Shown here one piece after another: positions 5,376-54,740 of a stretch of DNA of 64,000 nucleotides. Within the stretch, counting starts at the first letter, position 1; each line of letters starts with the position of its first letter. Under the pieces are notes generated by a model, which was given only the letters and a program-made list of their open reading frames with translations, had not been told where the DNA came from and made no database searches. The stretch is from Cyanidioschyzon merolae (lineage: Eukaryota), in the NCBI GenBank assembly GCA_000091205.1, contig AP006495.2; one strand, given 5' to 3'. The translations under genes were made by a program, and so were the position numbers.

Positions 5376-7279
5376 ATGCTGTACGGGGGGTTTTCGTGCG
5401 TTAACCTAGAGCCTGGACGGCAACTTTTTTAAGGCTGAACTTGTCGGCAGCGTATTCTGGCCATGGTGCCTTCTGGACGCGGAGACACGGCGAATGGCGA
5501 ACTCACAGGGCAGCAGGCGCTCCGCTTTTTCACACAAGAGCAACATCGCACGGCATGCACATCGGGAAATCGCGGGCTCCGTTGCGCATAGGAGATTATT
5601 GTTTTGCCTGGGGTTCATAGAACCGCTTGGTACAAAATACCTGGACCTTGATGTAGCTCAGAAGCGTGCCGTTTTCGCACTGCATCGTAACGTGTTCGAC
5701 GCGACAGAAGCGCCAGAGCAGCTGCGTTGCGTATGTGCGGCTATGTGACGCTAGTTGTGCATAGATTTGCTTTCGTGATCCACAGGTTATATGCTCTATT
5801 TATATTTTTATGACATGGGATTCATGCAACGAGACGGCCTCGTCCGGATAGATGCCGGCTGACAGTTCTTGTTCCAAGGATCTCGCCCTTGATGCGGATA
5901 CTTGCGGACTCGACCATGAGCCCTGGAACTGTATTCTTCTCAGAAACAATGGCTGGATTTGGCAAGTTTCCAGGAATCGCGTTTATGAGAGACGCCTTCG
6001 ATGGCGCTGGATGTGCCGCTACCGGTCCCGCAAGTGGACTGGAAGGCTCAGGCAGACCATAGCAAGGGTCAGCTCGAAGCTTGCTTCCGCGTATTACCAG
6101 TATTTAGTGCATCCCTGCGTAGTCAGGAGGAGAGCGATTCCGAATTGCGACTGCGATCCGGTCGATCTCGTCTCTTCAATCGTGCCTGAGCTGAAGTCAC
6201 GCTCGAGAAGTGCAGCTACCTGTTTGGTCCACTGAAACACATAACAATGCCGCCAATTTGGGGGCCGCAAGCAGTAGTCTGTCATCTTCGTTCTATGCGT
6301 GCTAGGACACGCGTCTACCAATGCCCACTCAAGCTCGCGTGCGAATTATGCAGAGGACTCGTTCTTGTGCACCTTTGAAGAATTTCCCGTGCGGCGTCTA
6401 ATGCTACTTAAAGCTCGTCAATGCAAAGGGAGTGGAGGCTTTTCCACCGCGGTTCCAAATAGAATCTGATTCATTCTACAAACCGTGGGGATCGGTGACT
6501 TCCATAGACGACAGAGCGGAAGCTTGCATTCTAACTTTACTTGCAGCGAGATGGTCCATTCGAAAGGAATTCACGGAACCCAGGTCAGTTCTGGCGCCAG
6601 ATTAGCTCATGGTGCGAAGAGTACGATGCGCACTAACCCAAGAGGTGTCAGAATGCGTAAATGTTTCCATCATTCCCAGGTTCGACGATATGCATGCGTT
6701 TCAACAGGTTCATGGCAACCTTCACTGCATCGGCGAGGGATGTGTGCGATTTGACGAACGTTCACTATCGTATGCAGCTCGACAACGGCAAGATTTCTAC
6801 AGCCTTCCCTGCCACGGGCCTCTCTGGGCAAAGCGCGACGCGGTCACGATCCCTTGCGTCGTCGGAGTGTTCATGGACCCACAAAAGCGTTAAAGTGGAG
6901 GTGCTGAGGTTTGGATCCGTTTAGTGCACTTCTGGTGGCGATCTGAAAGGCACTTGCACGTATTGGCACCCCCGCCAGTTACAAGAGTACCCCGACCAAA
7001 GTGCTCGCTCACGTCGCAGCAGGTGTTGCCGAAAGCAAGCACCTTCGGCTCTCTCACAGACGGCAACTTTCCCCGTCCACTCGAATATGGGCAGGAGCTG
7101 GCAAGTCCTTTTCCGTCGCTTCTCCTGGGAAGCAGGGCCGAACGTCCCCTTGCTCGTCAACTAGACACTTCATGGGGGCGGGGAGTCATCTTTTCAGCTT
7201 CATACCCAAGAACATCGTCAAAAGACCACAAACCGCAGTGGAAGCGCCTTGAGAAGAATAAAACAAATGGACGGCGCTG

Positions 7280-7420
7280 ACACCGCACACCAACAACGCC
7301 GTTCGAAAGTCGAACGACGTCGGGCGTGTACAGAAGTGGCGAGTGACCCGCCCTAGACAAGAAGTCGCCATCTGTGGCGCAGACGCCTCCCAGCCCTTTT
7401 GGACCGGCCACCTACTATTG
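7280..7420 (-). ncRNA. Candidate omega-RNA / right-end region: the last roughly 60 nt of the nuclease ORF plus about 70 nt after the stop, conserved across copies, with a subterminal hairpin cgttcga-ctt-tcgaacg
   Basis: This block is conserved at 7280-7420, 19974-20110, 52530-52660, 10746-10880 and 25580-25700 even where the coding sequence has diverged. It has a perfect 7-bp stem (7299-7315) and a ggcg.gtgac.cgcc palindromic core. The position matches where TnpB/Fanzor omega-RNAs are encoded. Confidence 0.3.
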
Positions 7421-8957
7421 CTTCCAACCCTGTCTCATATATTTCAACTTTTAGAGGTTGTCCAATGAAGTTGTCTCTCGTCAACTCTGGAGGTCTCTTC
7501 TCCAGCACCGCACATCTCCTTATATTGATTGCGGCATTAAAGTCTCTGTTAACAAATTCCGTACGTTTCTTGCCATCATTGGTTGTACACACTAATGCAA
7601 GCAGCCCTCGCACTTTCGCCCTCGTTTCCATTTGCTCCTCCATCAGCGGTCTGTACTTTGCTATTTCCTCAGGGCTCCTCTGGCACTTTTCCATTTCGAC
7701 CCTCTGAAGTGTGCACCCCAGCTCGTGGTGTGTATAGGACGTTCGGAACTCGTCTACAGGTATCGTAACGAAACGCCTTGCGCACTCCTTGTACACCCTC
7801 GTCGTTGGAGCTGGCGTAGTGCCGTTCTTGGGCGCCCAGCGCCCTGCCCCATACGTTACTACGAGCCTCTGACTTTCATTCTACTCGAGGGCGCTCAATT
7901 GATTAAAAAAATTCGCGAACGCCCGCTGCTTTTCACAGTAGAGATTCATTCGCAACCGAGCCCACCGGGGCTTGGTGTACTCCTCCCACAGCGCATCCCA
8001 ATGCGCAACGCGAACTTCCATGCATTCCCGAAAAGCTCGAAAGTCCGCTCCGCGGCTCGTCACCTCGCTCAAAGCTTCCAGGTGATCCTTCATTCCTGCT
8101 CTCCATGCCTCGATTTTCTTCCTTGCATTCATGATTCCCGATTCTCGATAGTACCTCGCTCTCGAGAATCTCAAAAGACGCATATCTTTCTGACGTAAGT
8201 TACCGTCAGTCCCATCTTCCGTACGCTTCGGTGCTGCGATGGTTATGATATTCGTATTCCCGGGGTCCGCGCCAAGGACAAAGTCGTTATCTTGCACTTT
8301 CTGGGTCGCAAGATCCGCCTCCTTCTTTTCTTCATGCTTCGCCGCGCTAACGACAATGTGGTTATCCTCCATCTCCTGCGTCGCAGAATCCGCCTCCTTC
8401 TTTTCTTCATGCTTCGTCACGTCAACGACAAAGTCGTTCTCATGCACTTTTTGCGTCGCAGGACCCACCTCCTTCTTTTCTTCATGCTTCGCCTCGTCAA
8501 CGACAAAGTCGTTATCCTCCACCTCCTGCATCGCAGGATCCTCCTCTTTGTTTTCTTCATCTTTCGTCACGGGCGCAGCTGAGGGAGGGACTGACCGATC
8601 TTTCTTCAACCGCCGATAGTGTACACACAAGGCTACTCCATCGGTTTCGATCATCCCAGTGAACAACTTTTGCTCGCTCACTCTCAGACGTTTGAAATTG
8701 AAGATATTCTTCCAGTACGTCTTCCGGTTTTCGCCGGTGAAGTCCTCCCTGCTAACAATGAACTCCGGACTGATCTCCTTCATGATGTCGTGAAGGACTG
8801 CGGAGTCGATAGTCACAAAATGTGACTTGATATTGTACAATGGAACCGCGTTGAAGCGCTTACCCATTAGGAAGGCCTTCCGTCTCTCCCACTGTTCATT
8901 TGTCTCTTCACTCAGCTTCATCTCTACTTTGCGTTCGAGTTCACGGTCCAGAAACAC
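7353..8957 (-). pseudogene. TnpB/Fanzor-like RuvC nuclease, about 535 aa, intact except for one in-frame TAG (plus-strand 7879-7881); the track splits it into 7881-8957 and 7353-7796
   Basis: Ruv[16 protein letters not shown]; a VVTYGAGRW block; zinc-finger-like DEFRTSYTHHELGCTLQRVEMEKCQ; RuvC-III FVNRDFNAAINIRRCAVLEKR. Both ORF segments are in the same frame, separated only by the TAG. The first codon is GTG (8957), and the first ATG is at 8921. Confidence 0.7.
8273..8561 (-). repeat. 75-bp (25-aa) coding tandem repeat within the N-terminal region of the nuclease ORF, about 4 units (KHEEKKEA..ATQKV.DNDFVVD)
   Basis: The DNA unit ccgcctccttcttttcttcatgcttcg recurs at 8316, 8391 and 8463. The protein shows four acidic/lysine-rich 25-aa units immediately before the RuvC-I GADPG motif. 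Confidence 0.7.
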
Positions 8958-9083
8958 AACTTAGCGCAGGACGAGGCGGTAGTATCTTTCCTTATCTTTT
9001 TTCAGCTCTGATATCTTGTCTGTTGGATTCGCCAGACCCAAAACTGCACGGTGCTCTTCTACAACTGCACGGATTACAGAATC

Positions 9084-9782
9084 CTAATTTGTGCTCCTGC
9101 GTGACGCCTTCTTGTCGACAAATTCGAACTCATCTTCACACTGTCGATTGTTCGTGATGCCATTGATAATCGTCCATATCCCCTTGCGAGAGACGCCGGG
9201 ATAGAGTGCAAACACGTCGCGTATCATGAAACGTTCGTGGTTCATCGTCAATTGGTTCTTCAGGTTCGTAATGTACTTCATTGCCCCGTATGTGTAAATA
9301 TTTCCGTCACCGCAGTATCGATTACCCTCGAAGCAGAATTCCGCGAAGTTTTCGTGGAGGACTTCCACCCGCTCATTTTCCCTCCGCGCTTCCTCTGTAC
9401 CAAGCATCAGCTGACGAATAAAGGTCTTATCGAAAAACTCGTCCGGAATCTCGACCGTTTCCATGTTCGTCACGTCGCGATACATCTCCCTCGCTAGATG
9501 CATCAGTCCTGACGACGCCTTGAAAATACTCTTGGAGTACGAATCGAAACGTTTTTCGAATGCGTCTCGCATCTTTTCCCTGTAGTGATCCTTGATATGT
9601 TTAAGAAGACCGGCTTTCGCCACCATCTCGTCGTACAGTTGTCTTTCTTGCCGCCTTAGACGTTGAGCCTCCCCCTTTCGGTTCTTCTTCTCTTCCTTTT
9701 CTTCTGGACTCGGTACTGTTTTTTGTTTTTTTCTGGCAGCCGGCGACCCTGGACCTCCAGGATCGTCGATTTGCTTTTTCAT
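9084..9782 (-). CDS. ORF-A: conserved 232-aa protein of unknown function encoded upstream of, and co-oriented with, the TnpB-like gene; it has a basic KKQK/RLRRQERQ N-terminus and a Cys/Tyr-containing C-terminal half
   Basis: ATG at 9782. Homologous ORFs or remnants occupy the same position relative to the other nuclease copies (21712-22465 and 54344-54586). No recognisable transposase motif (no HUH, DDE or serine-recombinase signature). Confidence 0.55.
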   Translation of the reverse strand: MKKQIDDPGGPGSPAARKKQKTVPSPEEKEEKKNRKGEAQRLRRQERQLYDEMVAKAGLLKHIKDHYREKMRDAFEKRFDSYSKSIFKASSGLMHLAREMYRDVTNMETVEIPDEFFDKTFIRQLMLGTEEARRENERVEVLHENFAEFCFEGNRYCGDGNIYTYGAMKYITNLKNQLTMNHERFMIRDVFALYPGVSRKGIWTIINGITNNRQCEDEFEFVDKKASRRSTN

Positions 9783-10745
9783 AGCTTTCCTATTTTAGTT
9801 TTTTTGAAAAAGAATGCTCTTTGAACCCTTGTGTTACATACAGCGAAAAACACTTGACTAGACTTGTTTGAGGGCTGAAACAGAAACGAGCTGAAAGACT
9901 GTACTTGGCTACCACCTCAACGGATATCCGACTTTTTACAGCTGAACAACACGCTCCTGGTCAGCATCGCGTTTCCCTTCAACGGCGGCATGTGCATCGC
10001 GTCAGTTGACTGCCTGATCTCCGAGATGCGTTCATTAAGCGCAATGCGTCCACCGCACGAGACGCCACTCCGATCGATGAAGGACACGTGTCCGACACCC
10101 CGCATTGGCACATGCGTGTTCGCATCGCATTGCAGCCAAACTAAAGTATCGAAAATAGGAAACTCATGTAGAACGATCTCTTGCTATAGACTCTGTCGCT
10201 GGTGCCGAAGCTACTGCCCATCGCAGTACCGCCTTGACATACATGGAAATGTTGGGACCTGACGCGATACCTCGCGATGCTTCTATCAAAAGCATAGCGT
10301 TCTCTGCGGCTTACCGTTGTGTGGATGACGTATGCATCACTCTTCTCAAAAGGAATTTCGTTAGTTTTATTCATCGTAACCAAACTAGGTACGGTGGGAT
10401 TCCTGAACACGGACATACGTTTAATGCCGATGCTTGTCATGCATGCTGCACTGACGCTGGAATGAGGAACTGACCTGAATTATGCTTCTATCCTGCGTCA
10501 TAGGCTGGTACTGGTGACCGTTCAAGTCATTTCCATGCTATCGTCGTAGCCAACTTATGGTGCCCGCTACGTTCCCCGGATCCGGTGATCATGGTAGAGG
10601 CACACCACACATGTAGCGTCCATATCTGCCAAGACGTTCGAGCCTTGCATCTCGGCTGACACGATCGAGGAACCCGACAAAAGCACATACTGTATTCTGG
10701 TCTACTCCATAAGATTAGCTTCAAGAGCCTAACCCGTACATCGAC

Positions 10746-12140
10746 GACCGCACACGCACACAAAACGCCGTTCCAAGTCGAAAGACGGCAGTGTACAGTA
10801 GTGGCGGCGAACGCGCCCTAGACAAAACGTCTCCAACTGATGTGCAGATGCTTCCTAGTTTTTCTCGACCAGTCCCCTGCTATCGGTTTCAGTTTCTCCA
10901 CGTTCACTTGGGCCTGGAGAAGCTGTCCCACAAAGTTGGTTCGCTTCAGCTCTGCGGGTCCCTTCTTCTGCACCGCAAAGCCCCATATATCAATAGCAGC
11001 ATTGAGGTCTCGCTCCACGATCCCCAAGCCTTTATTGATGCTGCTTGGACCGACCAGTGCAAGTCGTCCTCGAACTCGTGCCCTCTGTGCCAATTCCTTC
11101 TTTATCAGGTCTCCGTGTTTTTCCATCGCCGAAACGCCCCGCTGGCTCTTCTTAAAGTCGACGTTCTGAAACGTACATCCCAGCTTACATTTCCCGTGAA
11201 TTTTTCATTTCCTCAGAATGAACGCACTTCTTCGCGCCTCTAGGCGACGACCTGCCCGGAGACAGACGGACCTGCGGATGGACGACGATATGTGCCCCGG
11301 TGCGTTACATTGCGGTGCACGCTTCAGCGATTCGCCATGTGCAGCGATCATCACGTTTCACGAAAGGAAACACTCCTTCGATGCGGCTCAACCATGGACT
11401 GTACGAAGCAATGGAAAGCAGCGCTACCCCGATAGAATCGGCAAAGCCCGGGCGCGACGGGAAATAGTGCATTGGCGTATTGTCCTATATAAAAGGATAC
11501 GGCCAGGCGTCAGGGGGTGTGTCTTGAATGACTCGACGAAGTGGCTGGTGCTCTTGTATGAGCCTTCTGCAACAGCGAAACGGAGACCTCGAAATGAGTC
11601 CGCTGCAGCTGGAATAGATGATGATTTCCGAACTCTCCTTGAGTTTGGTGTTAGATATGAAGGGCGCCCTGTATGCGGATGCCCATGTACGATCCGGCTG
11701 TTTCGCGCGAAGGAGGTCTCGCCGGCTGAGCAACCGAACAGAAGCCCCTACGCCGCATACCGGCGGAGACGTTCCAGGAACTCTGCCGTTGCGATTTATG
11801 CGGAAGACAGGCATGAATGAAACAGGACTCTTTTTTGCGACTGTGTCGCAATGTCTCCAGGGCCGCACGAACGAGATGTCGACAAACAAAGACGACCGTG
11901 GTGGCTGCTATCGTCGCTTTTGGTTTCCGCAGAGTGCCTGTTGGGGCGCTTTTCTACGATTGACCGAAAACTTGCTTTAAGAATATCTGTTTACGCCGCG
12001 GAGCGAATGCACACTATTCCAGCGTTTCTCAACCATGTGAGTTCTGTGGTATGAGTGACCTGAAGAAAGAATGCAGTACACCTTGCACTGTTCAGAAACG
12101 ATATATACCCTACAGGCAACTCATCTATAATCTATGCGGC
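10746..12140 (-). mobile_element. Family II internally deleted (non-autonomous) Fanzor derivative, copy 4: right end plus a RuvC-III-only fragment, fused to a roughly 1-kb noncoding left-end-side region
   Basis: Same unit structure as 30300-31877 and 36310-37660. The 1-kb region (11150-12140) begins with ttcatttcctca.aatgaacgcacttcttcg, which resembles the left-end region of family I. Confidence 0.6.
10818..11126 (-). pseudogene. TnpB-like C-terminal fragment (RuvC-III only)
   Basis: IVERDLNAAIDIWGFAVQKKGPAELKRTNFVGQLLQAQV; identical fragment at 36345-36602. Confidence 0.55.
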
Positions 12141-19973: not shown

Positions 19974-20058
19974 CACACCGCAAAACGCCTTTCAAAAGAC
20001 AAAAGCTGTCGCCGGCAGTGCACAGCAGTGGCGAGTGACCCGCCCTGGACAAGACCTC

Positions 20059-21495
20059 TCAACTAATCTGCAGACGCCTTCCAGCTTTTCTCGACCGGCA
20101 ACCTACCAGTGATTCCAACTTTTTCTCATATACTTCCACCTTCAGAGATTGTTCCACAAAATTCCCTTTTGTCGGCCCGGGAGGTCTCTTTTCCATCACC
20201 GCACATCTACGTATACTGAAAGCGGCGTTAAAGTCTCGGTTCACGAATTCCATGCGTTTCTTCCCGTCCGTCCGACTCACTAGTGCGAGTCGCTCACGAA
20301 CTTTCGCCCTCCTTTCCATTTGCTCCTCCGTCAGCGGTCCGTACTTTTTTATTTCTTCAGGGTTCCGCTGGCACTTTTCCATCTCGGCCCTCTGAAGTGT
20401 ACAGCCCAGTTTATGGTGTGTATACGATTTTCGGAACACATCTATCGGTATCGTAACGAAACACCGTGCATACTCTTTGTAGGGTCTTTTCGCTGGAGCT
20501 GGCATAGTGCCTTTCTTGGGCGCCCATCGTCCTGCTCCGAATGCCACTACGAGCCTCTGACTGTCATCCTCCTTCAAGGCGCTCAACTCGTTGAAAAAAT
20601 TCGCGAATGCACGCTTCCTCCCACAATACATGTTCAGTCGCAGACGAGCCTACATGGGCTTCGAATACTCCTTCCACAGCGCATCCCAATGAGCAACGCG
20701 AACTTCCATGAACTCCCGAAAAGCTTTAAAGTTCGCTCCGCGGCTACTAGCCTCGCTCATAGCTTCCAGGTGATCCTTCACTCCTGGATTCCACTTCTCA
20801 AATTTCTTCCTCTCATTCATCATACCGGATTCTCGGTAGTATCTCGCTCTCGAGAATCTCAAAAGACGCATATCTTTCTGACGTAAGTTACCGTCAGTCC
20901 CATCTTCCGCACGCTTGGGCACAGCGACGGCTATAAAATTCGTGTTTCCAGGGTCAGCGCCAAAGACAAAGTCGTCCTCATGCACTTTTTGCGTCGCAGG
21001 ACCCGCCTCCTTCTTTTCTTCGTGCTTCGCCTCGTCAACGACAAAGTCGTTATCCTCCACCTCCTGCATCGCAGGATCCTCCTCTTTGTTTTCTTCATCC
21101 TTCGTCACGGGCGCAGCTGAGGGAGGGACTGACCGATCTTTCTTCAACCGCCGATAGTGTACACACAAGGCTACTCCATCGGTTTCGATCATCCCAGTGA
21201 ACAACTTTTGCTCGCTCACTCTCAGACGTTTGAAATTGAAGATATTCTTCCAGTACGTCTTCCGGTTTTCGCCGGTGAAGTCCTCCCTGCTAACATTGAA
21301 CTCAGGACTGATCTCCTTCATGATGCCGTAGAGGACGCCGGAGCCGATAGTCACAAAATGTGACTTGATATTGTACAATGGAACCGCGTTGAAGCGCTTA
21401 CCCATCCGGAAGGCCTTCCGTCTCTCCCACTGTTCATTTGTCTCTTCACTCAGCTTCATCTCCGCTTTGCGTTCGAGTTCACGGTCCAGAAACAC
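20059..21495 (-). pseudogene. TnpB/Fanzor-like RuvC nuclease, copy 2: intact except for one in-frame TAG (plus-strand 20650-20652, a TGG-to-TAG change relative to copy 1)
   Basis: [14 protein letters not shown] (RuvC-I), VVAFGAGRW, FRKSYTHHKLGCTLQRAEMEKCQ, FVNRDFNAAFSIRRCAVMEKR. The track splits it into 20650-21495 and 20059-20631, which share one frame. Confidence 0.7.
20961..21099 (-). repeat. Same 75-bp coding tandem repeat, 2 units
   Basis: EAKHEEKKEAGPATQKVHEDDFV; copy 2 has two units where copy 1 has four. Confidence 0.65.
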
Positions 21496-22465: not shown

Positions 22466-24680
22466 CTTTTACATTACGGCCACACGCCAGAGATTAAGAT
22501 CACGTTTCCTTTCAACGGCGACATGCGCGTCGTGTCTCATGTCTGCCTGATCTCCCGGGTGCGCTCACCAAGCGCAATGCGTGCACCGCGCGAGACGCTG
22601 CACCAATCGATAAAGGCCTAAGATCGTTGCCGCGCACAACTTGCCTCTAGAGCCCGGTACGCGCTGCGCTGCACCACAGCGTGAGATGCGTCGCGCCCGG
22701 TGCGGCATTGATCGAGTTCCTGGTGCCTTCGACTGCGATCGCGGGCTCTCGCCCCGCGGAACGGCTATCTCTCTATAAGCGCTATACGTTTGCGAATTGT
22801 GTGGATGTCAGAATGACGCGCAACTGGCCGAACAGCGCCGCACAGCACTCACATAGAAGCGAGCATGGACTGAAAAGCAGGTACGGGCATAGGCACACGG
22901 CGTTGCGCCGCATGCTGCCGCCTTTCGCCGCGCAGCACACCGACCGAGGCGGCGTTCAACCGGCAACGCTCCGCGCCCCTGCCAGATATATTGCTTGGGA
23001 ATCTGCGCATCGCCGCTGCGTCGAATCGCGGGGCAGTATCGCTCCTGGCATCGCGTGCGTGCAGGTTTGGATCGATTGTGCCAGATGCGCGAGCGAGCGC
23101 GCGCGCCGCGGATCCCTGTGATCGATGTTTACCGAGATATATGCGCTGTCTATGAATAACTATTTTTGTTTGAAATGAATGCTAGATGTACAGTCTCAAC
23201 AATCGAGGTTCATCCATAACGAGTTCAGGAATGCGCAAACCGGTTTTCTGTTGAATTTTCGAGGGGTTGCTTTCGTGATTTGCAGCTGGAGTTTGTAGCG
23301 TTATGGAAAACAAAAGGATGTTGGAAACCTTCGAACAAGGATTCGTGAAATGATGGATATCAGAATCCGATGCATATGGACACGGCTCGAATCATCCTGT
23401 TTCCTTGCGAGAAGCATGCTGAAATCACGCGTGATTCAGGTTTTCGAATTTTTTGTTTCAGGGCAATTCGCGGGCGTAGCTATTTGCGCGGCTTGATTGA
23501 CAAGGCATAAACTGGACGCCACTGGTTAACGGCCTTTTCTATAAGCTCATGCAGAAAGTACCCGTAACTTTTCAGGTCGAAAAATCAGTTCAGATCGAAT
23601 GATAAATCATCCTGACTGTGTGGCCATCGACGAGTCAGGATTCGACGGCAGCATGATACACCCCGCGAGATGTGCTCACAGAGGCTTCGATCTCTTCTAG
23701 TTGCGTGGAAAGGGTTGCTCGACTCGTTGTTTTGTCCTCGCAGCGCTTGCTTCCAGTGGAGCGTGCATCGTCGCCTTGCACGAACGGCGGACAGGCGGAC
23801 CGAATTTTCCTTACTTGTTCTCCGGCTTGGATTTTACTTCCGGTACTTTTCTCATCACGGGCAACATGGCGTTCCATAAGCCCTGTATTGCCTGGGACAG
23901 TGTGCGCTAGCGCATGCAGCAGACAGTGTACTCGCCGAAAGCATTGACGATGACAAGCCCAGGATCGCAGGGAATGGCTCGAGTTCCAGAAACGGATGCG
24001 GGAATCTGTGGACGCCTTCCGTATCCGTAGAGGGCATGCACTGAGCGATAAGGCAAGCATTTATACGCCACAGGGTGACGCGCAAAGAAGCGTAAGCGGC
24101 GGTCACACGGAAGCACCTGACCACAACTAAGTGTCACAGCAGTGACGAGCGCACCAAAAATATGCACAGGAACGATGAACATGGGAAGCGAGGCCTAGAT
24201 CGCAACCTTTGCCTGTGCAAGAAATTGGTGCGCAACAGGAGTAAGCAGCAGAATACCGGACCTGAACGCTGCGGTAAACAGCTCTCAAGAGTTGGCGACC
24301 GAGCTGCAGGACTAGGAGGTACCAGCTAATTGAAAGCCAGCGGTGCGAGGGAGACGATAAGCGAGCAGTTGCAAAAAAAATCCGACACGGACTGGTGTTT
24401 ATTACAATGGGAAGAGATCAAAATTTAAGGACGTACACCTGACTTGTCTACCCGATCCCATCGAACTGTATTTTGACATGAGTGTTATCGGATCAACGTA
24501 GACGAACGCATGATCTACTGTATGATGCATCGCACATCCATCGCGTGAAGATGCTCATTCTCATCATCATGCTCGCCATGGCAAATATCATCGGGATCAA
24601 CGACCACTAGATACTTGACCGCTATGACCTTTATCGATTGTAAAGGCGCTCCGTATGTTCATAAACATCCAATGAAACCG

Positions 24681-25514
24681 TCAAGCTTTCGGGTCCGTTG
24701 CCTCCGGAGCTAAACTGCTACGCGGTTCAGCTGAGTACTCGCTTTCCACTCGTTGCTTGACGCGCATGAATTCGTGCTCCCAACGCATGCGCAGTCGGAA
24801 AACAGTGTCCAGGCGCTCGGGTTTCATGAGATTAAAAGCATCAATTCGTCGGTTCACTTGATGCATCTGTTCCTGGAGCTCCCGCGCTGCTGCCTCCCAG
24901 CGCTCAGCTCGTTGTGCTGTGCTCGCAGGTGACGTGTCCTCGGCGGTAGCAACTCGAGCTCGATACGCTCGTTCCAGAGCCAGACGAATACGTTTCACTT
25001 CGGCGTCTACTTCATGCATACATTCTATCCAGACAGGTCGCAGTCCGTGCCGCTGTAAAAGACCATGCATGGTATACGTGACAAGGTCGACACCGAGTGG
25101 TGGTTGCGGCAGCTGCAGTGGCCCTCGTGGGAGCCGCTCGAACGCCCCTTGCCGAATCGCTTCCTGAATCTGTGACTCAACCCAGTCACGAATGGCTCGT
25201 TCATCTTCGAAGCGACTCGAGTCCTGCTCCAGAACGGCCAGGAGGTCCTTGCGTTCGGCCTCGCCAGCAACCTTTTGCTCTAGAAAGGGATAAATGCGAT
25301 TTTGTAGAAGGTCTACGGCGCGACGCAGACGGGCAGTGCGCTCCTGTCGAGCGGCCTCACTCGGTACGACGCGTTCGGTGCGCTTTTGCACGCCTCCAGG
25401 GCCAGCAGGGCGCTCTGCTACGGCCACGAGTGCTCGGCTCGGTACTGCGTGCCAGTGACTGCGTCCACGAGTGGTGAGCGGGCGAAGCAGATATGAGCGC
25501 AGGGTACCGAGCAT
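24681..25514 (-). CDS. DUF1992 (DnaJC28-like C-terminal domain) protein; the track ORF begins with TTG at 25574 and the first ATG is at 25514
   Basis: WVESQIQEAIRQGAFERLPRGPLQLPQPPLG resembles the DUF1992 core (IREA...G.FDNLPG.GKPL); overall helical, charged protein. Confidence 0.45.
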   Translation of the reverse strand: MLGTLRSYLLRPLTTRGRSHWHAVPSRALVAVAERPAGPGGVQKRTERVVPSEAARQERTARLRRAVDLLQNRIYPFLEQKVAGEAERKDLLAVLEQDSSRFEDERAIRDWVESQIQEAIRQGAFERLPRGPLQLPQPPLGVDLVTYTMHGLLQRHGLRPVWIECMHEVDAEVKRIRLALERAYRARVATAEDTSPASTAQRAERWEAAARELQEQMHQVNRRIDAFNLMKPERLDTVFRLRMRWEHEFMRVKQRVESEYSAEPRSSLAPEATDPKA

Positions 25515-25579
25515 ATGCGACTGTTGCACAGATGACCGCCCGGGCCCTGTGTCAGTCCTCCGGAGGTGCGCCAACGCTT

Positions 25580-26100
25580 ACACCGCTGGCAAACGCCTTT
25601 CAAAAGTCGAAAGCAGTCGTCAGCAGTGCACAGTAGTGGCGGCAAACGCGCCCTGGACAAAACGTCTTCAGCTGAACTGCCGAAGCCTCACTGTCTCTCT
25701 CGACCGGCCACCTACAACTGGCTTCAACTTCATTCCGTACAATTCGACCATGGAAGGCTGCCACACAAAGCTGGCTCCTGTCAGCTCCTCGAATCGCTTC
25801 TCCAGCACCGCGCATCGTCTGATATTGATAGAAGCATTAAAGTCTGGGTTCACAAACTCCATGCGCTTCTTGCCCCCGTTGGTTGTACCCACCAGTGCGA
25901 GGAGTCCTCGAACTTTCGCCCTCATTTCCATCTGCTCTTCCGTCAACGGTCTGTACTTTTCTATATCCTCAGGGATTGGCTGAAACTGCTCTATCTTGAC
26001 CCTCCGGGACGTACACCGCAGCTCGTGGTGTATATATGATGTTTGGAGCTCATGTATCGGTATTGTGACGAAGCATCGTTCGCAATCCTTGTACGCTCAT
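25580..26100 (-). mobile_element. Solo right-end-side fragment of a Fanzor-family element (copy 5), with a RuvC-III remnant at 25668-25946
   Basis: FVNPDFNASINIRRCAVLEKR plus the conserved 3' block tacaccgctggcaaacgcctttcaaaagtcgaaag..gtgcacagtagtggcgg..cgccctggacaaaacg. Confidence 0.6.
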
Positions 26101-27279
26101 TCCGAGTCGCTGTTAACCGGAAACGATATTCTCCTCGAAAAGCCATGAAAGTGGTGCTGTGGCTTTCCGCCAGACACGGTGGCTGCTTTTGCCGTGCCCA
26201 TGGCCCTGCAGGCGTGTTTCAGGGTGCGCTGACTGCACAAAAGCGCCGAGTTCGCGCTGCTGCCCTAGCATCTGGGTGCTGGCAGCTCCACAGCACAGAT
26301 ATCTCATGATGTGCGGGTGGAGCATGCTGCTTCAGCACCGTAAGAACGACGCGCTCTCATGCGCGTTCCCCCATGATCCAAGATGTAATCCATAGAGTGA
26401 TACTGGCGGCTATCACCGAGCGTCTTGCATATAGAATGCAAATCTGGGAACTGCATCCTAGGGCTCGGAGTTCCATGTCACGAACAGTGCATATGCTCAA
26501 GATCGGTGCTCGAAGCGAACGCGCTGTACACCATACACTGCATTGCTGCACGAGAACAGTGCTATGCTCGGGGCCGGATAGAGTACCTTACGAAAAGTCA
26601 GCAGGAACGTCGCTTTCAGGTACGGTGCGTGACACGGGCCAGGCGAGAGCGATCCGTTTGCCCCTCACTTCGGAATGCGAATTCGCTGTTCATGAGTGTC
26701 TTCCCGTAGTAATGCCTCTTTACTTCAGTTCAGAGGCGCGCCTGTTCGAGTTGGTTTTGCGCTTGCGTTCGAGCTTTTTGCCGATTCTATCGTGGAGTAG
26801 ACCTGCTTTTTATTCCTCCTTGTACTCCGTGATTCACGCCCATCAAAGACGTATTTTCTATTGTGAAACGTAATGATCGCAGCACTGGGCGAATCGCTGA
26901 AGCGTTCTGCACAATCACGTCGGAGCATACGTCGTCGTTCTTCAGCAAGTCTTTCTCCCTCCGGCCAGATCGTCGACTACGGGCATTCAGAAGTGCGTCC
27001 ATTTGACGAAATAGAAAATCCGTGCGAAAGGTATGGACATGAAATCTAGGGATTCCGGAGGGCTGTCATTGCCAGGCACCGGGAAAATGGAAATAATCCC
27101 CTTCTCGTCGACCACTGAGCGAAGAAGAGCAAGTGACGACGACGACAAAGAAGAGAATAGATAGGCGAGAAAAGATGCATGCCCGACGAGACGCAGGCGA
27201 TTCTTGAGTAGCACAGAGGGCGCGAGCTCTTAGAATCTTCGCATAGATGAATTCAGTCAGCGGCAATAAATGAAAGGTA

Positions 27280-27460
27280 TTCGTGAACCGAGACTTCAAC
27301 GCCGCCATCAACATCAGGTGATATCTGGTGTCCAGGACGAGACCCGAGGATCTGAGGCGATCCAGCTTTGTGGGGCAGCCTCTCAGACTCGAATTGCAGA
27401 AGGAGGAGCTGAAACCGATAGCAGAGGGGCTGTCTAAAACGGGCTTGGAGGTGTTTGTGA
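27280..27460 (+). mobile_element. Short plus-strand RuvC-III fragment of a Fanzor-family element (copy 8)
   Basis: Plus-strand translation FVNRDFNAAINIR*..RPEDLRRSSFVGQPLRLELQKEELKPIAEG. Confidence 0.45.
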
Positions 27461-29083: not shown

Positions 29084-30462
29084 TCATCCGCTCGTTCCTT
29101 GACTTGCGGCAAATTATAGAGCCATATTCCAAATAAGAGCACGCCTAAACCGAGCAGGACCATAAACGAAAAACGAGACTGGACCAGCAGCGGTACTGGC
29201 AGGCAGAAAACTAGCGTTGTTAGCGGCACAGAAATCAACGATGCAACCACGGAGTCGAGAGCGGATGCGATTTTCAGCAATCGCAAACCCGTGATGTTGA
29301 ATACAATATTCACAGCAACGTACGCAAGAGCTAGCCACGGCATCCAACTGCTCTCACGCCCCGCAAATGTGCTGAGTGCACTAGAAAAGTAATCGCCAAT
29401 GGAGGGGCTTTCAGCCAAGCGAGCTGCAAAAGGTGTTGTGAAAGGCAGCATGAGCGAGATAGCAGCAAACTGCATGAGGCTCGAAAAAGTATTGACAATG
29501 AACAGATCCGGTTGCACGCCACTTCGTTTGAAAACGCGCTCTTTGAGTACAACGGCTAAGGCAACGAATGCGTAGGATCCGAAGAATAAAAACGCATTCA
29601 TCCATACGCCTCCCGAAGAGAGATTCAAAGCTGCTTCGTTCACAGTTTGAGGGCCAATGGAAATCAGCACACCGGCGAGGACAACAAGCATGCCATAAAT
29701 TTGGGTGAGCGTGTAGCGACGACCTAGCAGAGCATACGAGGCCAAGGCAATGAATATGAGGATTCCTTGATTCAGTACTGGAAGCAGAGCACCGGGAAGC
29801 CGAGAAGCAGTAAACATACCGATTACGAAAGTAAGCGCCTCCAGTGCCCCAATGAGGGCGAACAGACGCCAGTTATTCACTGCCCACTTGACCTGCGTCA
29901 TAGGGACAATACGCATGCGCACTCGTATCCAGAGAATAGAGGCATAAACCAGCACGTAGCACAAGGTGACAAAAAGTGAGAGGAAAAATGTGTACGAATA
30001 CATTATCTGCAAGTCCATCCGGTAAACTACGCGGTTCAAGACCGATAACGCCACGTACGCTGCAGTGGTCAACAGCACGTCAGACGACACCCGCGTCGCT
30101 ATTCTACCACCCGTTTTTGCAGTTTTATTCTGCTGCATGAGCAAAGAGGCTTTCCGCATTTCAACGGGTCTACTTCGGGGTGCAGTAAAGCGGGGTCCAG
30201 GCTCCACGGGGCACCCCGCAAACGTTACTCGTGCCCTAGCGCCAGTCGAGCGGAAGGCTTGGTAAAGCCGACTGACAGGCGCTTTATTTACCTCCGCTGG
30301 ACTAGCAACATGATTTCTACGGGCAAAGGGGTTAGACTTTATGGAGTGAGCGGAACAAAACTGTGATATCCATCCACTGTTGGTGAACATTGCATGCTCA
30401 TCTTTGCCACCAGAACGAAAAATTTGCCACCGCCGGGTAAATTCATGCTCGCGCGCAGACAT
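29080..30462 (-). CDS. CLT: CRT-like transporter (CLT, chloroquine-resistance-transporter-like thiol transporter). The first roughly 40 codons of the ORF read through Fanzor copy-6 sequence, so the true start is probably an internal ATG (about 30390 or 30156)
   Basis: [10 protein letters not shown]...[27 protein letters not shown]...VLKERVF match the CLT/PfCRT-family core; multiple transmembrane segments. The 3' end overlaps RPL3 by 4 bp (convergent). Confidence 0.75.
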
Positions 30463-31877
30463 CTGCTAGCCTCTCTCGACTGGCTACCTGCTACAGGATT
30501 CAGTTTCTTTTTGTACATTTCTACCCTGAGAGATTGCCCCACGAAGTTGGCTCTTGTCAGCTCTGCGGGTCTCTTCTTCAGCACCGCACATCTCTCGATA
30601 TTGATAGCAGCATTAAAGTCTCGTTTCGCGTACTCCTGGCGTGCATAGTCGTTGGTTGAAGTCATCTCTCCAGGAATTTCTGGTAATCGTTCCCTCTGTA
30701 CCACGTTAGTAATGTCATCGCCCCGTCGGTCAAAAGAGTCTTCTCGGCTGTCTCCCTTTTTCATATTCTTCTTCTACGTCATCGTCACTTGCTCTTCTTT
30801 GCTTGATGGTCTTCGAGACGAGAAATTTTTCATTTTCTTTCGAGGCCGGAGATGACGGCCCTCCAGGATCTTCGAATTCCATGTGCTAACGTTTCCCATG
30901 AATTTTTCATTTCCTCAAAATGAACGCACTTCTTCGTGCCTCTAGGCGACGACCTGCCCGGAGACAGACGGACCTGCGGATGGACGACGATATGTGCCCC
31001 GGTGCGTTACATTGCGGTGCACGCTTCAGCGATTCGCCATGTGCAGCGATCATCACGTTTCACGAAAGGAAATACTCCTTCGATGCGGCTCAACCATGGA
31101 CTGTACGAAGCAATGGAAAGCAGCGCTACCCCGATAGAATCGGCAAAGCCCGGGCGCGACGGGAAATAGTGCATTGGCGTATTGTCCTATATAAAAGGAT
31201 ACGGCCAGGCGTCAGGGAGTGTGTGTCTCGAATGACTCGACGAGGTGGCTGGTGCTCTTGTATGAGCCTTCTGCAACAGCGAAACGGAGACCTCGAAATG
31301 AGTCCGCTGCAGCTGGAATAGATGATGATTTCCGAACTCTCCTTGAGTTTGGTGTTAGATATGAAGGGCGCCCTGTATGCGGATGCCCATGTACGATCCG
31401 GCTGTTTCGCGCGAAGGAGGTCTCGCCGGCTGAGCAACCGAACAGAAGCCCCTACGCCGCATACCGGCGGAGACGTTCCAGGAACTCTGCCGTTGCGATT
31501 TATGCGGAAGACAGGCATGAATGAAACAGGACTCTTTTTTGCGACTGTGTCGCAATGTCTCCAGGGCCGCACGAACGAGATGTCGACAAACAAAGACGAC
31601 CGTGGTGGCTGCTATCGTCGCTTTTGGTTTCCGCAGAGTGCCTGTTGGGGCGCTTTTCTACGATTGACCGAAAACTTGCTTTAAGAATATCTGTTTACGC
31701 CGCGGAGCGAATGCACACTATTCCAGCGTTTCTCAACCATGTGAGTTCTGTGGTATGAGTGACCTGAAGAAAGAATGCAGTACACCTTGCACTGTTCAGA
31801 AACGATATATACCCTACAGGCAACTCATCTATGATCTATAGAACGCATTATACAGTGACGTCGAAGACCTTCTGCAA
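30300..31877 (-). mobile_element. Family II internally deleted Fanzor derivative, copy 6 (more diverged RuvC-III fragment at 30339-30764, plus the 1-kb left-end-side region at 30860-31877)
   Basis: AKRDFNAAINIERCAVLKKRPAELTRANFVGQSL. The 1-kb part is near-identical to 11150-12140 and 36630-37660 and ends ..gacgtcgaagaccttctgcaa. Confidence 0.6.
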
Positions 31878-36309: not shown

Positions 36310-37660
36310 AAATGCTCCTGTAGGCGCCTCCCATCCTTTTTTGACTAAATGCCTCTTATCGGTTTCAGTTTCTCCACGTTCACTTGGGCCTGGAGAAGCT
36401 GTCCCACAAAGTTGGTTCGCTTCAGCTCAGCGGGTCTCTTCTTCAGCACCGCAAAGCCCCATATATCAATAGCAGCATTGAGGTCTCGCTCCACGATCCC
36501 CAAGCCTTTATTGATGCTGCTTGGACCGACCAGTGCAAGTCGTCCTCGACCTCGTGCCCTCTGTGCCAATTCCTTCTTTATCAGGTCTTCGTGTTTTTCC
36601 ATCGCCGAAACGCCCTGCTGGCTCTTCTTAAAGTCGACGTTCTGAAACGTACATCCCAGCTTACATATCCCATGAATTTTTCATTTCCTCAAATTGAACG
36701 CACTTCTTCGCGCCTCTAGGCGACGACCTGCCCGGAGACAGACGGACCTGCGGATGGACGACGATATGTGCCCCGGTGCGTTACATTGCGGTGCACGCTT
36801 CAGCGATTCGCCATGTGCAGCGATCATCACGTTTCACGAAAGGAAACACTCCTTCGATGCGGCTCAACCATGGACTGTACGAAGCAATGGAAAGCAGCGC
36901 TACCCCGATAGAATCGGCAAAGCCCGGGCGCGACGGGAAAGAGTGCATTGGCGTATTGTCCTATATAAAAGGATTCCGCCAGGCGTCAGGGAGTGTGTGT
37001 CTTGAATGACTCGACGAGGTGGCTGGTGCTCTTGTATGAGCCTTCTGCAACAGCGAAACGGAGACCTCGAAATGAGTCCGCTGCAGCTGGAATAGATGAT
37101 GATTTCCGAACTCTCCTTGAGTTTGGTGTTAGATATGAAGGGCGCCCTGTATGCGGATGCCCATGTACGATCCGGCTGTTTCGCGCGAAGGAGGTCTCGC
37201 CGGCTGAGCAACCGAACAGAAGCCCCTACGCCGCATACCGGCGGAGACGTTCCAGGAACTCTGCCGTTGCGATTTATGCGGAAGACGGACATGAATGAAA
37301 CAGGACTCTTTTTTGCGACTGTGTCGCAATGTCTCCAGGGCCGCACGAACGAGATGTCGACAAACAAAGACGACCGTGGTGGCTGCTATAGTCGCTTTTG
37401 TTTTCCGCAGAGTGCCTGTTGGGGCGCTTTTCTACGATTGACCGAAAACAGGCTTTAAGAATACCTGTTTACGCCGCGGAGCGAATGCACCCTATTCCAG
37501 CGTTTCTCAACCATGTGAGTTCTGTGGTATGAGTGACCTGAAGAGAGAATGCAGTACACCTTGCACTGTTCAGAAACGATATATACCCTACAGGCAACTC
37601 ATCTATGATCTATAGAACGCATTATACAGTGACGTCGAAGACCTTCTGCAATACATCGCC
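36310..37660 (-). mobile_element. Family II internally deleted Fanzor derivative, copy 7 (fragment 36345-36602 plus the 1-kb region), truncated at the right end
   Basis: The fragment is identical to 10818-11126 and the 1-kb region matches copies 4 and 6. It lacks the terminal agtggcg..gacaaaacg part of the right end. Confidence 0.6.
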
Positions 37661-39353: not shown

Positions 39354-40125
39354 GGAGCGGTTTCGTTTCGGGGAACTTTCGCGTGCGCTATGTGAGTTCT
39401 AGGGCTCCTATGCTCGACTGAGGGTACGCTGACGGTATTTCGAGACGTCATGTATGCGAGTGCTCCTCAGGCGCAGCCGCGGTGGTATATATGCTGCAGC
39501 TTGGGTTGGCGCCGGCGCCCAGCTCAGCTAGGACGCCATGTTGGGAGAGATGCTGCGCCGAAGCGACACAGGATATGCTTTGTACAGTTTTGAGCAGAGG
39601 CAGAATGCCGTGTTGCAACAGACGCTTTACAGCAGCGAGGCGCAGTAGTCACCAGAAAACTGCGGCGCGCCCGCTGTTGTCTCTGGGCTGTGTTACCGGC
39701 CTGTGCGTTATCGCACCCGTGTGGTAACTGGCCCTTCCAAAGGGCACCTCGCGCTGGCCCTACTGAATCCAGACGTCCACGAGTGACTACGTATGCTCCA
39801 GAGAGACCAAGCTGTCCCGAAGAGATGGGATGGCGACGCTCGCTCACCGCGAACCTATCATCATATCACTCTGGTGCATGGAAGGCCTGCTGTCTCAGTG
39901 GCGTACTCCTTGACTGCGCACTTGGCCTGCTCAAGCCGTCGGATGCCTGTAAAACCTAATGGAATATTCGACGCTGTGCTTCGGAAAGGCAGCGCTGGCG
40001 TCCAATAGACCTCCGGCAGGGAGCTGGCGGTGCTGCTGATATTGATGCTGGTGTCGTTGTCTCGTGCAATAAACGCAGGCCGGGTAATGCTCTTTTTCTT
40101 GAACGAGCCATTTTCCGAGATACTT
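39354..40125. repeat. 772-bp dispersed repeat R1, about 98.8% identical to R2 at 59903-60674 (direct orientation)
   Basis: Begins ggagcggtttcgtttcggggaactttcgcgtgcgctatgtgag and ends gaacgagccattttccgagatactt. The identical 81-aa ORFs 39482-39727 and 60031-60276 lie inside. Confidence 0.8.
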
Positions 40126-52500: not shown

Positions 52501-52529
52501 AAACAGAGCACTCACTGCCAGCAACGAAC

Positions 52530-54740
52530 ACTTTAAAAGACAAACGCTGCAGTCTGCAGTGTACACTAGTGACGAGAAACCCGCCCCAGACAAGAACTCT
52601 ACACCTGATGTGCAGACGCCTCCCAGTCTTTTCGGACCGGCCACCCATTGCTACTTCAAATTTTTCTCAGATAGTTCCACTTTGAGGAATTCTCTTACAA
52701 AATTCTTTCGTGTCCACTTTGGATGTCTTCTTTCCATCACCGCACAACTGATGTTAATCGGGGCGTTCAAGTCTGGGTTCACAAACTTCACACGATTCCT
52801 CCCGTTGGTTCTACTCACTAATGCGAGTAGCCCTCGAACTTTCGCCATCCTTTCCATTCGCTCTTCTATAAGCTCTCCGTACTTTTTTATATCCTCAGGG
52901 CTCCGCTGGCACTTTTCCATCTCGACTTTCTGAAGTGTAGACCCCTGCTCATGGTGCGTATAGGACGTTCGGAACTCATCTATCGGTATCGTAACGAAAC
53001 GCCTTGTGCACTCCTTGTACGTTGTTGTTGACGGAGCTGGCGAAGTCCCTTTTTTCGACACCCAGCGCCCTGCTCCGTATGCTACTACGAGCCTCTGACT
53101 TTCATCCTCCTTCAGGGCGCTTAACTAATTGAAAAAGTTCGCGAACACATGCTGCTTCCCGCAGTATAGATTCATTCGCAGACAGGCCCATCGAAACTTT
53201 GTATACTCTTTCCACAGCGCCTCGCAACGGGCAACGAGAACCCCCATGAACTCCCGAAAAGCTTTCAAGTCCGCTCCGCGGCTGGTCACCTCGCTCAAAA
53301 CTTCCAGGTGATACTTCATTCCTGCATTCCAAGTCTCGAATTTCTTACTTGTATTCATGATTCCCGATTCTCGATAGTATCTTGCTCTCGAGATTCTCAA
53401 AAGACGCATATCTTTCTGATGCAAGTTACCGTGAATGCCATCTTCCGCACGCTTGGATACAGCGATGGTTATGATATTCGTGTTCCCTGGGTCTGCGCCA
53501 ACGATAAAGACGTCATCCTGCACTTTCCGCGTTCCAAGATCCTCCCCCTTCTTTTCTACATCCTTCATCATGGGCGATTCCGAACGCATGATAGGACGAT
53601 ACGCCCTCAAGCGCTTGTAGTGTACACACATGGATATTCCATCGGTTTCGATCATCCCCGTGAATATTTTTTGCTCGCTCGTTTTGAGACGTTTCAAACC
53701 GAAGATATTCTTTCAATGAAATATCCGGTTTTCGCCCGTAAACTCGTTCTTGCTGTCATCGAACTCCCGACTGATCATTTCATGATGCTGTAAAGGACTC
53801 TGGAGTCGATTGTTACAAAATGCCACTTGATGTTGCACACCGGAACGACGTTGAAACAGTTCCCTTGAAGCGCAGCCTCCCATTCTACGACACTGCATTT
53901 GCTTCCACACCCTGCTCCATATCGGACTTGCGTTCCATTTCTCGATGCAGGAACACGAAATAGCGCATGAAGGGGGAAAAATATCTTCCTCTCATCTTTT
54001 TTCATGTCTGATACTTTTTTGCTGGATTGACAAGTCCCCAAATGGCATGGTGCTCTTGAATATCCTCACGGATTACAGAACCTCCATTCCTGCTCCTTCA
54101 GAAATCGTTCGAAGTCCATGATCATGTGGTTCTTCGGGTCCGTGAGGTTCTTGGTCGCCCCGTAGAAGCAAATGCGCGAGTCACCCTATGTTGAACGCCA
54201 TTCAAGCATTCAAAAGGGGCGATTTTCATGCAGGACGAGCACTCGAGAGTTTTCCTCGGCATTTCCCTGTACCAAGCATCAGGTGGCGAATGAAGCTCAC
54301 CCTGTAAAATCCTCCGAAGTCTCGCTGTGTTGATGTCCTTGACTTAGTGGTATGTCTCTCTCACAATATGCATCAGTTTTAAAGAAGCGTAAGGAACACT
54401 ACTGGAGCACGACTCGACACGGTTTCTGATGAACACTTGCATCTGTAGCTTCTGCGGACCCTTTTTATGTCCAAGAAGACTGGCTTTCGCAACGATCTCA
54501 TCCTTGCGTCGCCTTTCGTGTAGCTTTTGGCGTCCGGCCTCCAGTTTCTGCTTCTTACTCTTCACTTGCTGCTCTGGTCTCGGCACTGTTTTCCGTTTCT
54601 TGTCGAACTCGGCGGCTCCAGGTCCCCGGGATCCGCGACTTGCATCTCCATATCATTTCTTAGATTATTTATTTCTTCAAATGAACATATTTCGAACATA
54701 TCTGCGATAAACCGTGAAAAAGCATTTGATTACATTTACC
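52530..54740 (-). mobile_element. Fanzor/TnpB-like element, copy 3 (family I), degenerate. Nuclease remnants are at 52651-53061, 53125-53697 and 53775-54041, and the ORF-A remnant is at 54344-54586
   Basis: YKECTRRFVTIPIDEFRTSYTHHEQG...[31 protein letters not shown] and RFNAVP..NIKWHFVTIDSRVL align with copy 1, with frame disruptions and only one 75-bp repeat unit. Confidence 0.65.
52651..54041 (-). pseudogene. TnpB/Fanzor-like nuclease, copy 3, with multiple frame disruptions
   Basis: As above. Confidence 0.6.

Follow-up and report, generated by a model that had tools for sequence, protein, structure and literature searches.

In the red-algal element CMe-1A, the approximately 70 nt that separate the TAG stop codon of the Fanzor1 gene from the right boundary of the element most likely encode the scaffold of a Fanzor guide RNA (omega-RNA), a reading that our folding models and comparative analysis support with moderate confidence. 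We prefer this reading because the segment has the same position, size, layout and constraint pattern as the guide RNA module of SpuFz1, and because the family includes loci that resemble the gene-less "ghost" loci of that system. The first-pass annotation of this DNA had proposed as omega-RNA scaffold a conserved 3' block that begins inside the nuclease ORF. The layout after the stop codon, the sense-specific pairing, the covariation and the retention of the block by truncated copies speak for this proposal, whereas the 60 nt inside the ORF showed no structural signal of their own.

The window (the whole stretch of 64,000 nt that was analyzed) contains four ORFs that are sequence-identical to database proteins, three of them annotated in Cyanidioschyzon merolae 10D (RPL3, BAM81088; gamma-glutamyltransferase, BAM81097; LAG1-like, BAM81092). 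Its genes have no introns, and typical eukaryotic and plastid-lineage families are among them. These matches identify the window as nuclear DNA of C. merolae 10D, a red alga. The flagged element is CMe-1A, a Fanzor1 transposon family that, according to passages in Bao and Jurka (PMC3627910), was already described in 2013. There, CMe-1A is listed as Fanzor1 and has a Fanzor1 ORF; it is given as present in ~150 copies of ~3 kb, each ~80% identical to the consensus, and without terminal inverted repeats, while its target duplications and classification are left undefined in those passages (PMC3627910). Furthermore, its 5' 635 bp are stated to equal a separate repeat, TE-N2_CMe (PMC3627910). The 2013 paper predates the discovery of omega-RNAs, and the passages found in it by term search do not describe a structured 3' module (PMC3627910). 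No report of a guide RNA in this alga was found in the literature searched.

Self-comparison of the window revealed seven copies, all in the same orientation. The three family II copies have a common 5' part (11183-12135, 30885-31839 and 36357-37613) that is 98-99% identical and far younger than the attached nuclease remnants, which are ~66-72% similar. This part starts with a ~635-bp repeat (11183-11816) that fits TE-N2_CMe as described in the passages cited above (PMC3627910). The full-length copies in the window differ from CMe-1A as presented there, since their 5' segments are other than TE-N2. An eighth remnant, absent from the earlier annotation, lies at 26777-27432 on the plus strand; it is an inverted, diverged and partial family II copy with ~70-72% identity.

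Judged by its sequence, the protein of the element is a Fanzor1 in which the catalytic D/E/D residues are retained. The frame of copy 1 still contains GADPG, VDEFRTS and NRDFNAA (within NRDFNAAINI), which provide the three RuvC residues D, E and D and line up with the corresponding motifs of SpuFz1. Homology to solved structures was detectable with a family profile rather than with a single-sequence search. The profile matched SpuFz1 (8GKH; E = 5.7e-13, profile positions 287-654) and GtFz1 (9CER; E = 1.3e-5), in both cases in the RuvC/TNB half, while single-sequence phmmer against the PDB gave no match and a Pfam scan of the ORF fragments gave a weak PF07282 match alone. Among distant relatives, PF07282 was matched by P0041 above the Pfam cut-off and by P0042 just below it. 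Together with the listing of CMe-1A as Fanzor1 in the published passages (PMC3627910), the profile matches support the identity of the nuclease as a Fanzor1. Homologues with 55-82% identity are plentiful on JGI metagenome contigs.

Copy 1 has a single continuous frame with three in-frame stops (7881-7883, 8961-8963 and 9084-9086). Since these stops are its only lesions and there is no frameshift, we consider it a young pseudogene. The same locus is present on the metagenome contigs L002-L004 with ~99% identity. All three full-length copies in the window are pseudogenes, so that any activity of their blocks would depend on a Fanzor protein provided in trans, as has been described for ghost loci. 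Long open frames of 744-819 codons (stop to stop) were found upstream of the block in L001 (819 codons), L009 and L008. In CMe-1A, the C4 zinc finger of the TNB domain, which is placed between RuvC-II and RuvC-III, has degenerated at the protein level (window 7600-7720; TSYTHHELGC...KC versus CxxC...CxxC), and we counted this against the omega-RNA reading; its four cysteines are kept in the distant relatives P0042-P0044. The Fanzor frame also contains 75-bp tandem repeats (8270-8569) that encode 25-aa acidic, lysine-rich units (DNDFVVD.KHEEKKEA...), the number of which varies among the copies.

A protein-based scan of the metagenome contigs yielded 80 loci, and ~70 distinct copies carry the block. 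We searched the window with an nhmmer profile built from 57 copies and with the covariance model (CM) R1, which covers the post-stop ~73 nt alone (Table 1). The block consists of the last ~60 nt of the nuclease frame, as originally described, and ~67-70 nt after the TAG stop. The nhmmer matches to the complete block extend over 7287-7415, 10754-10878, 19979-20106, 25583-25715 and 52518-52647, and CM R1 located these five sites as well. Retention at seven sites was upheld for five, where the block is complete, and copies 5 and 6 are without it. In copy 5, the coding start of the block is left, CM R1 gave no match and the post-stop module is absent; copy 6 was matched neither by nhmmer nor by CM R1. 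Both lack the post-stop part and have another short 3' end in common. Likewise, retention in the family II copies holds for one of three (10754) but not for the other two. The truncated copies at 10754 and 25582 retain the block, and solo blocks of ~135 nt are present in L015 and L074. A 26-nt core of the block had two window matches at up to 3 mismatches, with 0 expected by chance.

The right boundary is sharp. Similarity among the copies is lost ~67-70 nt past the TAG stop, BLAST similarity of other copies to copy 1 ends at window position ~7276-7295, and the flanks past the model end differ between the copies and have no common motif. L084 comes from a strain with 96% identity over the neighboring 5 kb, and its homology to copy 4 breaks off exactly where the 3' arm of the hairpin is complete (L084:7560-7800 compared with window 25470-25710); relative to the window, L084 has 6 inserted nt, by which its outer stem is extended to 10 perfect bp. 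At window position 10744-10757, only ~10 nt separate the right-end block from the next full-length element, which begins there with its 5' segment (TCGATGTACGGG...). Such head-to-tail abutment was also seen in one other locus pair (L015:1264-1358 / L074:1535-1619), the two members of which share ~81% identity across 1.4 kb upstream and are probably orthologs.

Table 1. Features of the CMe-1A 3' region in the window
Feature	Position	Strand	Basis and remarks
Fanzor1 (CMe-1A) frame, copy 1, pseudogene	7353..9782	-	Translation, homology; ~810 codons
TAG stop of the Fanzor1 frame	7353..7355	-	Translation, fold; A and G take part in the basal pairs of stem-loop 1
Stem-loop 1	7335..7354	-	Fold; stem GGCG/CGCC near-invariant, GC pairs in 59-63 of 66 copies
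Near-invariant segment CGCCACU(A/U)CUGUACAC (= CGCCACUUCUGUACAC)	7326..7341	-	3' arm of stem-loop 1 plus linker
Terminal long hairpin (stem 2)	7285..7331	-	13 + 6 bp in copy 1; its 3' end is the element end
Flank directly 3' of the hairpin, candidate guide	7265..7284	-	Putative, by analogy with the 14-15-nt SpuFz1 guides (PMC10432273)
3' block, copy 1	7286..7415	-	nhmmer 7415-7287, E = 2e-36; CM R1 7286-7360, 87 bits
Complete 3' block, copy 2 (internally deleted family II; ~430-bp 3' remnant plus TE-N2-like 5' part 11183-12135)	10754..10878	-	
Complete 3' block, copy 3 (full-length, frameshifted)	19977..20106	-	nhmmer, CM R1
Complete 3' block, copy 4 (~500-bp 3' fragment of the element)	25582..25715	-	nhmmer, CM R1
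3' block, copy 7 (degenerate full-length)	52518..52647	-	nhmmer, CM R1
Copy 5, first ~40 nt (coding part) of the block alone	30452..30490	-	nhmmer E = 0.005, profile positions 2-40

The two parts of the block behave differently. The first 60 nt are coding, because the frame stays open to the TAG in most copies: it is open at least to the TAG position in ~50 of 68 copies, and 33 of the 68 stop at this position or at most 1 codon from it (codon 38-39). An earlier stop after NFIG was considered as the true end of the ORF and rejected, a stop being present there in just 5 of 69 aligned rows. The C-terminal tail encoded by the block is basic (...GGRSKKTGRRLHVSWRRFV, followed by the stop). Codon periodicity is clear upstream (~0.93 at positions 1 and 2, ~0.82 at position 3) and fades over the last ~45 codons, which fits a tail under weak constraint, whether or not a further constraint acts at the nucleotide level. 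Neither the swap test nor consensus base-pair probabilities revealed a conserved structure in the ORF part, and no covariation was detected there. In many single-sequence folds, the loop of stem-loop 1 paired over a long range with the ORF part (GUGGGUGGCC...); this pairing was discarded, since the swap test gave p = 0.45 and no consensus pairs were found. With the frame kept open in most copies and no covariation, the structural role proposed for the 60 nt inside the ORF was not borne out, and these nucleotides seem to be conserved mainly as code for the basic tail. The ~70 post-stop nt are not coding, because they lie after the stop codon and carry 2-nt indels. The possibility raised by the first-pass annotation that coding constraint explains the conservation of the block therefore fits the 60 ORF nt but fails for the post-stop nucleotides.

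After the stop codon, the predicted RNA comprises two stem-loops connected by a linker. The loop of stem-loop 1 (~7 nt) varies freely between the copies (identity 0.4-0.7), and the linker that follows this stem-loop is almost invariant (CGCCACUACUGUACAC / CCACUACUGUACAC). The segment from 7341 to 7326 reaches a majority identity of 0.94; it is the best-conserved stretch of the whole 3' region and is conserved at least as well as the first two codon positions. In stem 2 and in the loop of stem-loop 1, the sequence varies at least as much as at third codon positions (identity of 0.72-0.75 compared with ~0.82), yet stem 2 stays paired. Across the copies, the terminal hairpin has 15-21 bp, with up to 19 continuous bp in L073. 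The perfect cgttcga/tcgaacg stem reported for copy 1 is present, but at 7300-7316 instead of 7299-7315, and this 7-bp palindrome is the tip alone of the 13 + 6 bp hairpin. Moreover, the hairpin is not subterminal, as had been thought, but terminal, since it reaches the end of similarity. Two hairpin types (A and B) occur, with the sequences CGUCG-UUCGA-cuu-UCGAA-CGGCG and CAACG-UUUUUC-uuuu-GAAAG(A/G)-CGUUG. They differ by multiple compensatory changes, and the outer stem differs among the copies yet stays paired. No curated Rfam model matched window 7150-7650, up to E = 1.

The 72-nt post-stop RNA of copy 1 folds with -37.5 kcal/mol (z = -5.26), an energy reached by 0 of 200 shuffles; for the antisense strand of this copy, z was -1.57. 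In the other four window copies the two-hairpin topology is kept, with energies no better than those of shuffled sequences (z from 0 to -1.2). That the hairpins of four of the five window copies were no better than shuffled ones was counted against the omega-RNA reading. Across the family, the sense strand gave the more stable fold in 54 of 57 copies (mean, -25.0 kcal/mol, versus -18.3 kcal/mol for the antisense strand). The sense strand folds better because of G-U pairs, and in the model-fitted alignment G-U is the commonest pair at four pairs of stem 2 and at five pairs in all. When the 3' arms of the hairpins were swapped between copies, the energy changed from -18.3 kcal/mol (native) to -15.3 kcal/mol (chimeric), a difference found in 0 of 10000 permutations. 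Within type A, the swap gave p = 0.004; within type B (n = 12), the difference was not significant.

Covariation was analyzed in an alignment of 66 distinct copies fitted to model R1. Sixteen pairs changed on both sides, compared with 10.3 +/- 1.7 in shuffles; furthermore, 51 compensated cells (25.3 in shuffles) and 52 further pair types (40.5 in shuffles) were counted, and 0 of 500 shuffles reached the observed value for any of the three counts. Paired cells amounted to 79%, compared with 30-50% in slid controls. When 20 type-A copies were aligned with MAFFT without fitting, 80.5% of cells were paired under the proposed structure (29-61% when slid), and covariation was not above shuffles. RNAalifold on the MAFFT alignment of 57 copies returned no structure, and a simple scan for paired columns returned many uninformative G/U-rich helices. 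We rate the covariation as moderate and not decisive, because the R1 alignment leans to the structure and because the copies are related. A covariation between the stop codon and CUA (UAG/CUA to CAG/CUG, copy 3) was also considered and was not consistent across the copies. In summary, the post-stop pairing is specific for the sense strand and shows modest but significant covariation.

The system that most resembles this layout is SpuFz1 (Spu-1 of Spizellomyces punctatus; PDB 8GKH), for which a 75-nt omega-RNA scaffold was solved (Saito et al. 2023, PMC10432273). In that RNA, stem-loop 1 is joined by a linker of 6 nt to a long stem 2 whose distal part does not contact the protein, and the guide that comes next is a 14-15-nt copy of flank sequence (PMC10432273). 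Like the SpuFz1 module, the CMe-1A segment comprises ~70-75 nt, would have a Fanzor1 nuclease as its partner and starts with a short stem-loop 1, from which a linker leads to a long stem 2 with its base against a variable flank. The position is alike as well, and the constraint pattern agrees: in CMe-1A, the sequence itself is constant in stem-loop 1 and the linker, but in stem 2 only the pairing is. Gene-less ghost loci of the SpuFz1 system keep the omega-RNA module and are functional (PMC10432273); the CMe-1A loci that look like them are copies 2 and 4, together with the solo blocks of L015 and L074. The two systems also differ. Spu-1 has 30-nt terminal inverted repeats, TA duplications and a CATA TAM (PMC10432273), whereas CMe-1A is without inverted repeats. 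The RNAs have no sequence similarity, and the CMe-1A RNA is predicted, whereas the SpuFz1 RNA was sequenced and solved.

If the block of CMe-1A acts as an omega-RNA, the short stem-loop that includes the stop codon would be the first part of the scaffold, the sequence-invariant linker would contact the Fanzor protein, and the base of the long stem would abut the flanking host DNA. Transcription in the sense of the Fanzor gene would run through the right end into the flank, and the RNA would be processed and bound by the Fanzor protein. The first ~15-20 nt of the flank would then serve as the guide and direct the Fanzor1 RuvC nuclease to matching DNA beside a TAM. In this case, the block would be the missing RNA partner for a high-copy red-algal Fanzor1 family (~150 copies). 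With the boundary and the ~70-nt two-stem scaffold defined, the RNA can be synthesised and tested directly. C. merolae is a genetically tractable hot-spring species. If the reading is true, CMe-1A would provide a candidate heat-tolerant eukaryotic RNA-guided nuclease and would allow a test of how a Fanzor-only element without a known transposase persists. The element family was already known and the principle of RNA guides is established, so that the block is probably a plausible further example; it extends the paradigm set in 2023 and does not change it.

IS200/IS605 elements encode the Y1 transposase TnpA and a pseudoknotted scaffold of ~130-150 nt that overlaps the ORF, and they have subterminal hairpins at both ends. 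If the CMe-1A block is an omega-RNA, it is like the reRNA/omega-RNA of IS200/IS605 TnpB (ISDra2), which is encoded where the nuclease gene ends, continues across the right end and uses flanking sequence as guide. In contrast, the bacterial features just listed were not found in CMe-1A, and its right-end hairpin is terminal. When TnpA (Y1 HUH) or any other transposase was looked for, the Fanzor frame was the only long ORF, and the other ORFs of the element had no Pfam match. A left-end hairpin matching the right end or a fixed target motif was not found either. We therefore do not retain the IS200/IS605-like nature ascribed to the element. Its left side is variable: a common left boundary, a TAM or a flanking motif was not found, which weighs against the omega-RNA reading, and the 5' segments, which form at least four unrelated groups, are heterogeneous mosaics of other repeats.

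The same nucleotides could instead be a cis-acting transposon end, which we regard as unlikely although several observations fit it. The hairpin would form in top-strand single-stranded DNA, or be bound as a duplex, and would be read by a transposase or a replication-type enzyme acting in trans. There are precedents in the right ends of IS200/IS605 and in the 3' hairpins of Helitrons, and Fanzor1 genes are known passengers of Helitrons. With Helitron/Helitron2 3' ends, CMe-1A shares a hairpin near the 3' end, variable 5' parts and the lack of inverted repeats. The CMe-1A hairpin stops exactly at the element boundary, and with DNA parameters the top strand, and only this strand, folds equally exceptionally (z = -4.2, -2.9 and -3.8); the folding data are matched just as well by a single-stranded DNA hairpin that would serve transposition. 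The copies combine a common 3' end with heterogeneous 5' segments, synteny with the related strain breaks exactly at the 3' end of the hairpin, and hairpin quality is independent of ORF integrity (no correlation with stability, Spearman rho 0.03), which at the same time speaks against the omega-RNA. However, no transposase is encoded and the other ORFs of the element have no recognizable domain; unlike Helitrons, CMe-1A has no conserved CTRR-type terminus after the hairpin and no Rep/helicase. Neither a matching left-end hairpin nor a target motif was found, and a cis-acting end would leave the conserved stem-loop 1 and the linker upstream of the hairpin unexplained. A cis-acting end is compatible with an omega-RNA, since both functions overlap in IS200/IS605, and the hairpins may coexist as RNA and as DNA signal.

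Empty sites in other strains were sought via the neighboring RPL3 gene; rearrangements were seen, but no clean empty site. Synteny between strains breaks at L083:4880-5120 versus window 22790-23030, near the 5' side of copy 3, and L086 and L087 show further breaks versus window ~30811 and ~32700, inside or near copy 5. The breaks in L083, L086 and L087 may be real rearrangements or assembly joins at repeats.

The right ends frequently lie next to host gene starts, in many cases 5-50 nt upstream of them. Among 41 independent (clustered) flanks, 21 have a co-oriented ATG-ORF of at least 120 aa that starts within 150 nt of the right end, 13 of them within 50 nt, while the end of an opposite-strand ORF is that close in 5 of 41. 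In the window, the glutaredoxin ATG (19973) lies 3 nt beyond the right end of copy 3 (19977), the topoisomerase I ATG (~52500) ~17 nt beyond that of copy 7 (52518), and the ATG of a DnaJC28-like gene (~25515) ~67 nt beyond that of copy 4 (25582). Further right ends just upstream of a co-oriented ORF were found in L007, L026, L037, L049, L060, L061, L080 and other loci. Copy 1 has no gene close downstream. This arrangement suggests insertion or retention at the 5' ends of genes, or a promoter or 5'-UTR role of the right end, which may have to supply such a function to the host gene. Since about half of the right ends lie close to co-oriented gene starts, the putative guide would often correspond to the 5' end of a host gene.

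The gene starts also bear on a second alternative, in which the block is a 3'-UTR or intergenic signal that serves 3'-end formation or stability of the Fanzor mRNA, or acts as an outward promoter or 5'-UTR for the host gene. In this case, the 21 of 41 flanks, including the glutaredoxin, topoisomerase I and DnaJC28-like cases, would be accounted for, and the invariant linker could be a protein-binding or initiator-like motif. Nevertheless, we consider this role very improbable: compensatory upkeep of a long hairpin is not expected of a promoter, the same layout belongs to a proven guide RNA in SpuFz1 (PMC10432273), and copy 1 lacks a close downstream gene. Still less credible is a functionless block whose copies are alike by descent from one recent master element, because, although conservation in most of the block does not exceed that of third codon positions, the hairpins have decayed in four of the five window copies and the unfitted alignment gives no excess covariation, the linker is conserved above synonymous sites (0.94 versus ~0.82), the stems remain paired despite sequence divergence, with multiple compensatory changes separating the two stem types, and the use of G-U pairs in the sense strand is consistent across the copies.

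More speculatively, and with little probability in our view, the elements might target gene starts or be kept there, the right end acting as a mobile promoter, 5'-UTR or RNA-guided regulator; or a transposase-less Fanzor1 might spread by RNA-guided breaks and copying. The latter, if true, would in addition account for the 5' mosaics that copies have in common and for the break in synteny located exactly at a right end. Finally, the window contains a direct repeat of at least 300 bp (39354-39653 and 59903-60202), 100% identical and 20.5 kb apart, that is unrelated to the Fanzor element.
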